Both the position numbers and the translations under genes were made by a program. Below, one piece after another: positions 10,667 through 13,221 of a stretch of DNA of 38,512 bases. Origin of the DNA: Actinomycetota bacterium. Lineage in GTDB: Bacteria > Actinomycetota > CADDZG01 > JAHWKV01 > JAOPZY01. The stretch is taken from assembly GCA_025963875.1 (NCBI GenBank), contig JAOPZY010000051.1, positions 1 to 38,512 of the forward strand. Reading direction: 5' to 3'. Below the pieces are notes generated by a model, which searched no databases, had not been told where the DNA came from, and was given only the letters and a program-made list of their open reading frames with translations. How positions within the stretch are numbered: position 1 is the stretch's first letter; every line of letters starts with the position of its first letter.

Positions 10667-11662
10667 ATGCTCGCCGTCCTGGCAGTCCGCACCGATCCCG
10701 CCGACCCGCTCGCAGGCCTCGCCCTTGCCGAGCGGGACGAACCGCGCCCCCCCGAGGGCTGGGAACTCGTCAGGGTGGTGGCCGCCGCCCTCAATTACCA
10801 CGACCTCGCCACCCTCCAAGGCGTCGGCGTCGATCCCGGCCGCCTCCCCATCGTCCTGGGGACCGACGCCGCCGGGGTGGCGCAAGACGGCCGGGAGGTC
10901 ATCGTCCATTCGGTGGTCAGCTCGGCGCCGGGCGCAAGCGAGACCCTCGCCCCCGACTTCTCCATCCTGTCCGAGCGCTACGACGGGACGATGGCGGGCT
11001 GGGTGGCGGTCCCGCGGCGCAACCTCCTCGACAAGCCCGCCGAGCTGTCCTTCGAGGAGGCCGCCTGCCTCCCGACCGCCTGGCTCACGACCTACCGCGC
11101 CCTGTTCACGCAGGCAGGGGTACGGCCCGGCGACACCGTCCTCGTGCAGGGCGCAGGCGGCGGGGTGGCGACGGCCGCGACCCTCCTGGGCCGGGCCGGC
11201 GGTTTCCGGATGTGGGTGACGAGCCGGTCCGAGGCCAAGCGTGCCCGGGCGCTCGAGCTGGGCGCGCACGGGGCCTTCGAGCCCGGGGCCCGCCTGCCGG
11301 AGCGGGTCCATGCGGTGATCGACACGGTCGGCGAGGCCACCTGGTCCCACTCGCTCAAGGCCCTCGTGCCCGGCGGGACCCTGGTGACCATGGGGGCGAC
11401 GAGCGGCTCGGAGCCCCCGGCGGACCTCAAGCGGATCTTCTACCGTCAGCTCCGGGTGATCGGGTCGACGATGGGAACCCGGGAGGAACTGGCAGCGATG
11501 GTCCGGATGCTGCTCGTGACCGGCGTCCGACCTGTCATCGACAGCGTCCTCCCGCTCGAAGACGCCACCGAAGGCTTCCGGCGGATGGCCTCCGGGGAGC
11601 TTTTCGGGAAGGTGGTGCTTTTAGCTAATCCGGCGCCTCGGGTACCCGACCCAGTGCCTTGA
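10667..11662 (+). CDS. MDR-superfamily (quinone oxidoreductase-like) NAD(P)H-dependent dehydrogenase
   Basis: ALNYHD, LGTDAAG, EEAACLPTAWLT, GAGGGV nucleotide-binding motif, FGKVVL; TAGAAT at 10652-10657. Confidence 0.9.
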   Translation: MLAVLAVRTDPADPLAGLALAERDEPRPPEGWELVRVVAAALNYHDLATLQGVGVDPGRLPIVLGTDAAGVAQDGREVIVHSVVSSAPGASETLAPDFSILSERYDGTMAGWVAVPRRNLLDKPAELSFEEAACLPTAWLTTYRALFTQAGVRPGDTVLVQGAGGGVATAATLLGRAGGFRMWVTSRSEAKRARALELGAHGAFEPGARLPERVHAVIDTVGEATWSHSLKALVPGGTLVTMGATSGSEPPADLKRIFYRQLRVIGSTMGTREELAAMVRMLLVTGVRPVIDSVLPLEDATEGFRRMASGELFGKVVLLANPAPRVPDPVP

Positions 11663-11674
11663 CGGTCTGCTTGT

Positions 11675-11683
11675 TGTTATAGT
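11675..11683 (+). promoter_or_regulatory. Extended -10 promoter (TGn-TATAGT) for the small membrane peptide gene
   Basis: TGTTATAGT in an AT-rich patch 50 nt upstream of GTG 11733. Confidence 0.6.
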
Positions 11684-11732
11684 TGCCCAAATTCGCAGGC
11701 AGCTGGCAGTACCGGGAGGGAGGTGACAGCAG

Positions 11733-11840
11733 GTGGCGCCTTTGGCAGACACGCTGGTGAACGGACCGTTTTTCATCATCCTGGTGGTCGTGGGAGTGAT
11801 CGCGACGTTCGGGTTTGCTTTCTTCCACAGCAAGGACTAG
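11733..11840 (+). CDS. 35-aa single-transmembrane peptide MAPLADTLVNGPFFIILVVVGVIATFGFAFFHSKD (below ORF-track cutoff)
   Basis: GGAGGT SD at 11719-11724, 8 nt before GTG; one hydrophobic stretch of about 19 residues; polar/charged tail; GC-rich third codon positions. Confidence 0.7.
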   Translation: MAPLADTLVNGPFFIILVVVGVIATFGFAFFHSKD

Positions 11841-11964
11841 CTCCGGCAACTAGATCCACACTGGCTTCGCAACCAGCTTCAAGGGGCACATCGCTCCCTA
11901 AGCACTGGCAACTGCCTTTCCCTCGAGCTCAGGTGGGGCCGATACCTCCTTCCGGCCCCACCCC

Positions 11965-11997
11965 TCGAGGCTCGTCCCCGTCCCTCGATTTTCTCTG
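11965..11997 (+). terminator. Probable intrinsic terminator of the small-peptide transcript
   Basis: TCGAGGG(11965-11971)/CCCTCGA(11983-11989) stem followed by TTTTCTCT. Confidence 0.5.
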
Positions 11998-12002
11998 CCC
12001 CC

Positions 12003-12620
12003 GTGCCTGAACCAGGGCCTGATCTGGCCCTCTTCCCGCTCGACCTCGTGCTGATGCCGGGCGAGCGCATTCCCCTGCACATCTTCGAGCCGCGCTACCG
12101 CGAGCTGATCGGCGAGTGCCTCGACAACCTCACGGAATTCGGTCTGATCTACCGGCACGGCGTCGCCCTCAGCCCGGTGGGCACCCGCGCACGCGTTGAA
12201 GGAGTGCTCGAGCGCTTCCCGGACGGACGGTTCAACGTCGTCGTCACCGGGACGACGCGGTTCCGCCTGGTCGAGGAGACCACCGGCCGGTCGTTCATCA
12301 CTGCCCGGGTCGGCGAACTCGACGAGATCGGGGACCGTCCCTCAGAGCTGGAGATCGCGGCCTGCCTGGCCGCGTTCGCCGAGACGCAGGCGAGGGCCGA
12401 GGTCCCCGAGCTCGACGGCACCCCGCAGGGTCTCGCCTTCGCCGTCGCCGCCGCCGTCGGGTTGCCCAACGAGGTCAAGCAGGAGCTGCTCGAGATGCTG
12501 TCCGAACGGGACCGCATCGTGCGGCTCACCGACGCTCTGACCGGATCCGCCGGGGCAGACATCCGTGCCCGGGAGATCGAACGACTGGCGTCGGGCAACG
12601 GCAGGGTCGACCACCTGTAG
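12003..12620 (+). CDS. Stand-alone LON peptidase substrate-binding (N-terminal) domain protein
   Basis: LALFPL.LVLMPGERIPLHIFEPRYRELI; DGRFNVVVTG..RF; KQELLE; no AAA+ or protease domain. Confidence 0.9.
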   Translation: MPEPGPDLALFPLDLVLMPGERIPLHIFEPRYRELIGECLDNLTEFGLIYRHGVALSPVGTRARVEGVLERFPDGRFNVVVTGTTRFRLVEETTGRSFITARVGELDEIGDRPSELEIAACLAAFAETQARAEVPELDGTPQGLAFAVAAAVGLPNEVKQELLEMLSERDRIVRLTDALTGSAGADIRAREIERLASGNGRVDHL

Positions 12621-12630
12621 GCCCCCTGCC

Positions 12631-13221
12631 ATGGAACCGCCCCATCCCTTCACCAGGGCCGACCCCTCCGACGACGCCCTCTTCTACGCCGAGGAGCGCA
12701 AGGTGGTCCACCTGGAGCCCGGCGCCATCGAGGCGCTCCGCTCCTTCTACGGTCGCCTGCTCCTGCCGGGGGACGCCGTCCTCGACCTCATGTCCTCCTG
12801 GCGTTCGCACCTGCCCGATGGCCTGGGCCGTGTGACCGGCCTCGGCCTGAACGCGGCCGAGATGGCGGACAACCCGCAGCTCGACGAGTACGTGATCCAC
12901 GACCTGAACCGGACGCCTCGCCTCCCGTTCGCCGACGCCTCGTTCGACGCCGTCGTCTGCGCGGTCAGCGTCCAGTACCTCGTCCGGCCGTGGGACGTGT
13001 TCGCCGACGTCCGCCGCGTCGTGCGGGCGGGCGGGCCACTCGTGGTGTCGTTCTCGGACCGCTGCTTCCCGACGAAGGCGGTCACCATCTGGCTCCTCGG
13101 AGGCGACGAGGAACACGTGATGCTGGTCCGCTCCTACCTGGAGGCGGCCGGGTACCCCGAGATCCACGCCGAGGCGCCGCACTCCCCCGACGACCCGCTC
13201 TTCGTCGTCTGGGGCCGCTGA
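12631..13221 (+). CDS. Class I SAM-dependent methyltransferase (type 11-like)
   Basis: DDALFY, VLDLMSSWRSHLP, GLGLNAAEM, SVQYL, DPLFVV pattern; ATG 12631. Confidence 0.85.
   Translation: MEPPHPFTRADPSDDALFYAEERKVVHLEPGAIEALRSFYGRLLLPGDAVLDLMSSWRSHLPDGLGRVTGLGLNAAEMADNPQLDEYVIHDLNRTPRLPFADASFDAVVCAVSVQYLVRPWDVFADVRRVVRAGGPLVVSFSDRCFPTKAVTIWLLGGDEEHVMLVRSYLEAAGYPEIHAEAPHSPDDPLFVVWGR

Follow-up and report, generated by a model that had tools for sequence, protein, structure and literature searches.

Type I toxin-antitoxin loci are the closest described counterparts of the element analysed here. In the available part of PMC6733600, a primary transcript that cannot be translated is presented as the hallmark of such loci: in hok and aapA, the Shine-Dalgarno (SD) sequence is paired with an anti-SD sequence through a long-distance interaction that joins the mRNA's 5' end to its 3' end, truncation at the 3' end activates the message, and the antisense RNA targets the truncated form. 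The outline of hok/Sok and the narrow range of type I families are given in the available parts of PMC8309996 and PMC5367252. The element compared with these systems is a gene for a 35-aa membrane peptide on the plus strand of contig JAOPZY010000051.1 from an Actinomycetota bacterium (assembly GCA_025963875.1); the whole stretch of 38,512 nt that was analysed is called the window. The open reading frame (ORF) of the peptide lies between 5' and 3' untranslated regions (UTRs) that are complementary to each other, and an original prediction, made from the letters of the window, had proposed a type I-like toxin-antitoxin locus or an otherwise RNA-gated small membrane protein.

As hok/Sok and aapA/IsoA are described in those excerpts, the locus resembles them in its small hydrophobic peptide (30-52 aa), in an SD for which the 3' portion of its own mRNA offers a possible anti-SD partner, beside a stable 3' structure, and in its narrow taxonomic range. 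It differs from them in that no homology, antisense candidate or covariation was found, the pairing is unconserved in sister genera and the predicted fold of the window leaves the SD unheld by the 3' arm. It is, moreover, a single-copy locus of fixed synteny in Actinomycetota, a phylum for which no described type I system stood among the papers listed by the literature search. The peptide is also comparable with KdpF, AcrZ and CydX, with which it shares a length of ~30-40 aa, one transmembrane helix, vertical inheritance, purifying selection and conservation of the whole helix. It differs from these proteins in having no homology to them and no obvious membrane complex adjacent, as its neighbours are a dehydrogenase-like gene and a gene for a soluble LON N-terminal domain. 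The tentatively preferred reading is a new, lineage-restricted small membrane protein, the mRNA of which probably closes on itself in this genus.

The small membrane-peptide gene

The ORF at 11733-11840 encodes MAPLADTLVNGPFFIILVVVGVIATFGFAFFHSKD, with one hydrophobic helix at approximately residues 13-31 and a polar C-terminus, HSKD. Coordinates, product and the single helix agreed with the original prediction, and the ORF appears in the ORF listing at a minimum of 25 aa. By DNA search the locus was detected in 5 of 41 related genomes, the window's own included; in the other four peptide-holding genomes (G001, G002, G004 and G005) a 33-36-aa ORF occupies the same position between the same two neighbours. 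Across genera, 14 columns of the peptide are invariant. A metagenome scan added 20 loci which, together with the genome loci, resulted in 17 distinct DNA variants. Among them, 13 are from the window's genus (including the window itself, L003, L015, L016, L017 and L025), and L004, L034 and L005 represent other genera. Between the window and L003, 8 synonymous and 0 non-synonymous changes were counted over 31 codons, and the ratio of non-synonymous to synonymous differences (pN/pS) was 0.00-0.21 in 10 computed pairs, some of them between genera. The ORF is a real, conserved, single-copy gene under purifying selection. A lack of conservation had been named in advance as a ground for rejecting the prediction; in the homology and conservation check the ORF proved to be conserved in synteny and under selection.

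The features of the locus are the following:
10667-11662, plus strand: Zn-dependent dehydrogenase/quinone-oxidoreductase-like gene, the upstream neighbour (Pfam ADH_zinc_N 2.2e-19, ADH_zinc_N_2, ADH_N)
11675-11683, plus strand: extended -10 element TGTTATAGT, with the hexamer TATAGT at 11678-11683
11697-11710, plus strand: 5' arm block 1, AGGCAGCTGGCAGT, partner of 11904-11917
11714-11725, plus strand: 5' arm block 2, GGGAGGGAGGTG, purine-rich and holding the SD, partner of 11887-11898
11733-11840, plus strand: small ORF, GTG start, TAG stop, 35 aa
11841-11882, plus strand: proximal 3' region, variable in the alignment, with the ~38-nt insertion specific to the window's lineage
11883-11897, plus strand: local hairpin GGGGC-ACAUC-GCUCC, from the fold and the RNAalifold consensus
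11887-11917, plus strand: 3' arm, with 11887-11898 for block 2 and 11904-11917 for block 1
11921-11970, plus strand: terminator-like stem-loop from the fold, inner stem 11932-11941 with 11953-11962, loop 11942-11952
12003-12620, plus strand: gene for a stand-alone LON N-terminal (substrate-binding) domain (Pfam LON_substr_bdg 2.7e-24)

A profile hidden Markov model (HMM) built from the five peptides matched 5 of 6 genomes of the family with E <= 1e-21 and one copy each. Outside the family, a single weak match (E 0.004) was obtained among 107 other genomes of the class; it was rejected as an unrelated, non-syntenic 28-aa hydrophobic ORF on another contig of G023. In G003, a 97%-complete genome of the same family, neither the peptide nor the dehydrogenase, the LON-domain protein and the methyltransferase were found with these queries, so that an argument from co-loss is impossible. 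An overlapping 95-aa ORF at 11723-12010 was ruled out, since a 38-nt indel disrupts its frame in relatives.

The profile search resulted in four clusters among 1.84 billion representative proteins. By exact look-up, 5 clusters with 26 members in total were retrieved, the only name among them being "hypothetical protein", and the window's identical peptide is already present in NCBI/ENA/nr. With Pfam, 0 families were detected for the peptide at E up to 1. Among NCBIfam models only two, both of small membrane proteins, gave matches, and both were below threshold. NF045534 ('EYxxD motif small membrane protein') describes likewise small, single-helix proteins; the window's peptide matched it weakly over the hydrophobic stretch, with 17.9 bits against a cut-off of 29, and the four relatives with 0-18.3 bits, which indicates that the peptide is not a member. 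The same applies to NF040912 ('SGM_5486 family'), also small and single-helix, with 14.8 bits against a cut-off of 35, again over the helix only. The best value in the ESM Atlas was 0.87, with unnamed clusters, and a YldA-like cluster resulted in 0.82; none reached the level at which a hit is taken for anything beyond a lead. The statement that the peptide family could not be recognised therefore holds as to Pfam and NCBIfam families, with the addition that the sequences are already public as hypothetical proteins. The best reading is a new family of small proteins confined to a single lineage of uncultured Actinomycetota from soil.

The extended -10 element and the SD were located as predicted, and both are conserved. 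CTTGTTG(T/G)TATAGTT is kept in 13 of 13 same-genus variants, in L004 and in L034, whereas L005 retains the TATAGT hexamer only; the -10 motif of the small ORF occurs once in the genome. The sigma-70 pattern scan, which demands a -35 box, found no promoter. From the position of the -10 element, transcription would start near 11690. The conserved SD has its core GGAGG at 11719-11723, 9 nt 5' of the GTG at 11733.

Part of the window is contained in 19 public runs, 10 of which are recorded as RNA. Four RNA-library runs from three studies were examined through assembled contigs of 268-380 nt, which are unstranded and indicate presence only. The contigs span 11632-11885 (X1), 11632-11963 (X7), 11701-12018 (X8) and 11749-12099 (X4), by which the small ORF is covered in all four runs and three studies. 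The segments 11400-11616 and 12144-12300 were uncovered in the four runs, which gives no indication of transcript limits. The small ORF is apparently expressed.

The inverted repeat and the 3' stem-loop

The two collinear complementary blocks were confirmed with the coordinates and pair counts originally claimed: 11697-11710 and 11904-11917 form 12 of 14 Watson-Crick pairs, and 11714-11725 and 11887-11898 form 10 of 12. Among 2000 dinucleotide shuffles of 11841-11931, a single 12/14 block was obtained in 21 and both collinear blocks together in none, the thresholds being post hoc. Beside the energy tests, the 5' UTR was aligned to the reverse-complemented 3' UTR by a threshold-free Smith-Waterman comparison. 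The score was 14, a value that 8 of 1000 shuffled sequences and 4 of 1000 random segments from the same genome also reached, and the three control orientations scored 5-9. The scores of 10 further same-genus variants were 13-16, reached in 0-11 of 1000 nulls. Judged by these comparisons, the 5'/3' complementarity is a real, imperfect inverted repeat of ~31 nt, beyond chance in the window's genus.

The repeat is stronger in most same-genus relatives than in the window. The duplex energy was calculated for an assumed 5' UTR (11690-11735) with the 3' UTR (11841-11931). In eight same-genus variants without the 38-nt insertion it corresponded to z values of -2.2 to -3.8 versus shuffles, and for six of these eight, tested against genome segments, 0.2-2.5% of the segments were as good; the same-genus variants are related by descent and amount to roughly one observation. 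Pairing of the SD with the 3' UTR had a predicted probability of 0.62-0.80 in seven same-genus variants, as against 0.23 for the window and 0.32 for L015. The pairing is weakest in the window's own lineage, and the 38-nt insertion and T11899 both lower it.

The insertion (about 11846-11883) is specific to the window, L015 and L016 and includes CACTGGC, which resembles part of the 3' arm. With it, the 3' UTR is lengthened from ~62 to 91 nt, and it coincides with the weaker predicted pairing between the SD and the 3' UTR. Position 11899 is T in the window and G in L015, L016, X7 and X8; the G would add a C11713-G11899 pair between the blocks.

Block 1 closes both the minimum free energy (MFE) fold and the centroid of 11690-11974, and the centroid of L025 contains both blocks. 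The folding check was thus favourable as to block 1, while the helix of block 2 with the SD, though present in the L025 centroid, is not formed in the predicted fold of the window. In the RNAalifold consensus block 1 is kept, the SD is paired with in-ORF sequence, and the 3' GCUCC forms the local hairpin with GGAGC. This hairpin (11883-11897) had an energy of -7.9 kcal/mol and a z of -2.4, and at its third pair 9 rows of the consensus carry A-U and 4 carry G-U.

The stem-loop at 11921-11970 was predicted with -32.4 kcal/mol and a z of -5.85, and 0 of 200 shuffles were as good. Its outer stem is CCUCGAG/CUCGAGG and its inner stem GGUGGGGCCG/CGGCCCCACC. All 13 same-genus variants, and L004, L034 and L005 as well, keep the sequence of the inner stem, with varying loops, and the stem-loop is single-copy in the genome. 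The inner stem is conserved across genera despite a synonymous divergence (pS) of 0.49-0.67 there, with a different loop and surrounding 3' UTR. An intrinsic terminator was not recognised, as the stem-loop is followed by CCCCUCGAGGCUCG with no U-run, and the terminator scan, which demands a T-run, resulted in 0 sites; actinobacterial terminators often have no U-run. The loop at 11942-11952 holds ACCUCC (11944-11949), complementary to the SD of its own gene. Two loop versions are found within the genus, AUACCUCCUUC in 6 variants and AUUCUCCCGC in 7, both with a CUCC core, and the loops of L004, L034 and L005 are without it.

Two further ideas were rejected. A miniature inverted-repeat transposable element or other repeat element was discarded on account of the arms, the -10 box and the stem-loop all being single-copy, and attenuation by ribosome position on the small ORF as a general mechanism on account of the distance of 22-97 nt between stop codon and stem-loop.

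Readings of the locus

According to the preferred reading, the gene would be independently promoted and would encode a 33-37-residue single-pass membrane protein, vertically inherited between the dehydrogenase-like and LON-domain genes. The peptide would insert so that its N-terminus faces outward and its C-terminus, which bears K/R, faces inward, and it may serve as a small subunit, accessory or regulatory, or act as an oligomer. The conservation of the helix along its whole length suggests a specific helix packing and not generic membrane damage. In this genus the UTR arms probably pair in the mRNA, which would result in a closed, end-protected and probably long-lived message with a partly masked SD, the masking being greater in relatives such as L025 than for the window. 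The effect of the pairing would concern mRNA stability and perhaps translation. It would be a lineage-specific tuning device and no core element of the system, given that the peptide, the promoter and the stem-loop persist in sister genera that do not have the repeat.

A number of results weigh against this reading. The function assigned to the peptide is wholly conjectural. The contigs X1 and X7 extend 5' of the -10 box, where their loose ends correspond to variant forms of the upstream sequence, and X4 and X8 cross the 3' stem-loop, although contigs do not fix transcript ends. Within the genus, the Smith-Waterman score of L003 and L017 was only 9, reached in 12-21% of nulls, which is the chance level; in L004, L034 and L005 the repeat is likewise at chance level, the score being reached in 6-58% of nulls. 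The duplex energy of the window, -39.2 kcal/mol, corresponded to a z of -0.77, and 20% of 300 shuffles and 38% of 1000 same-genome segments were as good. The energy and sequence tests disagree because the G-rich SD region has many alternative C/U-rich partners in a GC-rich genome.

The predicted folds add to these points. The whole-region folds were ordinary (z -0.34 and -1.02), and in the window the SD is paired with the in-ORF GCUUUCUUCC in the MFE structure and is free in the centroid. The local hairpin vies with block 2 for the GCUCCC anti-SD. The pairing of the window's SD, 0.84, was compared with equal-length windows of 150 other genes with a GGAGG SD, for which the mean was 0.75 and the median 0.79, with 35% at 0.84 or above.

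The alignment of the 13 same-genus variants points in the same direction. The covariation of the two blocks that the original prediction had looked to was absent, as 0 of 26 arm pairs were altered on both sides. Of the 14 pairs of helix 1, 8 are invariant and 6 depart by unpaired cells only; 4 of these six are broken in 1-2 variants and 2 are mismatched in most or all variants. In helix 2, 5 of 12 pairs depart by unpaired cells only, and 3 more are kept through G-U. The covariation term of RNAalifold was +0.07. Covariation was likewise lacking in the stem-loop, with 0 of 43 pairs changed on both sides across the two helices and the stem-loop, which indicates that an alignment of this depth cannot decide the matter. 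Per site, the divergence of the arms is 0.12-0.14 (3' arm 0.137) versus 0.15 at codon position 3, a modest constraint, and they pair about equally well on either strand, so the RNA and DNA-repeat readings are not separated by this property. The idea of an RNA-gated small membrane protein was accordingly borne out as to the peptide gene and the inverted repeat; the gating was not favoured by duplex energy, covariation or the SD pairing of the window.

A rather doubtful alternative is an ordinary small membrane-protein gene whose repeat has no role in RNA, the arms being inverted DNA sites for a regulator or the decaying relic of a duplication-inversion. The equal pairing on both strands speaks for it, with no G-U asymmetry in favour of the mRNA strand and no G-U among the window's arm mismatches, as do the arm changes, which mostly break pairs and are never compensated. 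The erosion of the repeat in L003 and L017, its absence from other genera, the resemblance of the window-lineage insertion to part of the 3' arm, and an arm divergence close to that of codon position 3 are also consistent with it. The placement of the arms argues for RNA instead: both lie within the likely transcript, one at its 5' end and the other directly before the stem-loop, which is the geometry of a closing helix. The 3' arm is, furthermore, much better conserved than the adjacent 3' stretch, as the mean pairwise difference in 11841-11882 was 0.60 versus 0.12-0.15 in the arms and codon position 3. The arm motifs have no other copy in the genome, and hence nothing points to a regulon.

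A type I-like toxin module is unlikely. Its peptide would be membrane-toxic and its full-length mRNA inert through the 5'-3' interaction until trimmed at the 3' end, with an RNA antitoxin that either escaped detection or is replaced by the built-in 3' arm. The small hydrophobic peptide with its strong SD agrees with the size and hydrophobicity of type I toxins (below ~60 aa, with a transmembrane helix). The beyond-chance repeat, which includes the SD and lies immediately 5' of a stable stem-loop, and the centroid of L025 with both blocks are also in line with such a module. The architecture corresponds to the hallmark given for hok and aapA in the excerpt of PMC6733600, and the excerpt of PMC5367252 describes such families as typically narrow in range. 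On the other side, no homology to a described type I toxin family was detected in Pfam or NCBIfam. A minus-strand TANNNT between -228 and +230 of the stop codon was absent from 13 of 16 variants, a result that leaves room for promoters of other types and for RNAs derived from the 3' end, and there is no space upstream for the gene of a divergent small RNA. In the 94.6%-complete genome neither a second copy nor a complementary stretch longer than 20 nt was found (best non-self match <=20 nt, E 0.12). Further points against it are the zero covariation, the retention of the peptide, under purifying selection, by sister genera that have no such repeat, the predicted fold of the window, in which the 3' arm does not hold the SD, and the single-copy locus of fixed synteny in a housekeeping region. 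The original assignment as type I-like was not upheld, given that toxin homology, a complementary locus elsewhere in the genome, covariation and, in 13 of 16 variants, a candidate antisense promoter were not found, that the repeat is at chance level in L003, L017 and the other genera, and that the SD pairing is ordinary; beyond the peptide size and the repeat, these comparisons detected no feature of such a system.

It is quite unlikely that the small ORF heads an operon, as its first cistron, with the LON-domain gene and the methyltransferase following; the stem-loop would then serve as an internal attenuator or stabiliser that sets their ratio, with the peptide as a possible anchor or regulator of the LON-domain protein. 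All five peptide-holding genomes show the small ORF followed by the LON-domain gene. The interval from the small ORF to the start of the LON-domain gene contains neither a plus-strand TANNNT nor an SD in 12 of 13 same-genus variants, and no U-run follows the stem-loop, which is crossed by X4 and X8. A contig over two genes is, however, no proof of a single transcript, and the stem-loop, at -32.4 kcal/mol, is very stable. L004 and L034, moreover, have what looks like a leaderless-type promoter at the LON-domain gene, and no small hydrophobic ORF was found within 517-660 nt upstream in 5 of 5 LON-domain loci examined from other families (seven were fetched; L042 and L046 were left out as the anchor motif was not found). 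An operon in the window's genus is possible. The LON-domain starts in this genus are TTG or GTG, with neither an SD nor a -10-like hexamer; in L004 and L034, TAGCCT-N6-ATG is placed with the hexamer ~12 nt 5' of the LON-domain ATG.

Very unlikely is a first type I-like module of Actinomycetota in which the stable, abundant mRNA of a membrane-active peptide would be silenced by its own 3' arm as a cis-linked antitoxin, with no separate antisense gene and with release by 3' trimming, for instance when cells in soil leave dormancy.

Annotation under-represents small membrane proteins, and the locus provides a clean case of one that is conserved in an uncultured lineage from soil. The repeat bracketing the ORF offers a compact, testable case of pairing between mRNA ends in a Gram-positive lineage of high GC content, a setting in which few studies have addressed RNA-level control of small proteins. 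If the pairing gates translation or stabilises the message, the mechanism of hok and aapA would extend to a new phylum; if not, a new small-protein family would still stand, with a partner to seek.

Neighbouring genes and other observations

The stop codon of the dehydrogenase-like gene is 12 nt 5' of the -10 box. This gene and the LON-domain gene are syntenic in G001, G002, G004 and G005. The methyltransferase gene is next after the LON-domain gene; the listed ORF shares 56 nt with the end of the latter (12565-12620), and the real start of the methyltransferase is probably downstream of the listed one. The wider neighbourhood is of housekeeping character, with two alpha-amylase-family genes, a rhodanese, a hydrolase and a Nuo51-like gene.

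The Rfam search over 11000-12700, at E up to 5, resulted in only two matches, both at chance level (E 3.1 and 4). The only other TG-N-TATAGT in the genome is outside the window, at 11084-11480 of contig C137 of the window's genome (G000). It is followed after 7 nt by the ATG of a ~90-aa ORF and then by an overlapping second ORF that starts with MSVVYDAGVLVAADHNDR. From its arrangement, this ORF pair looks like a leaderless type II antitoxin-toxin pair.

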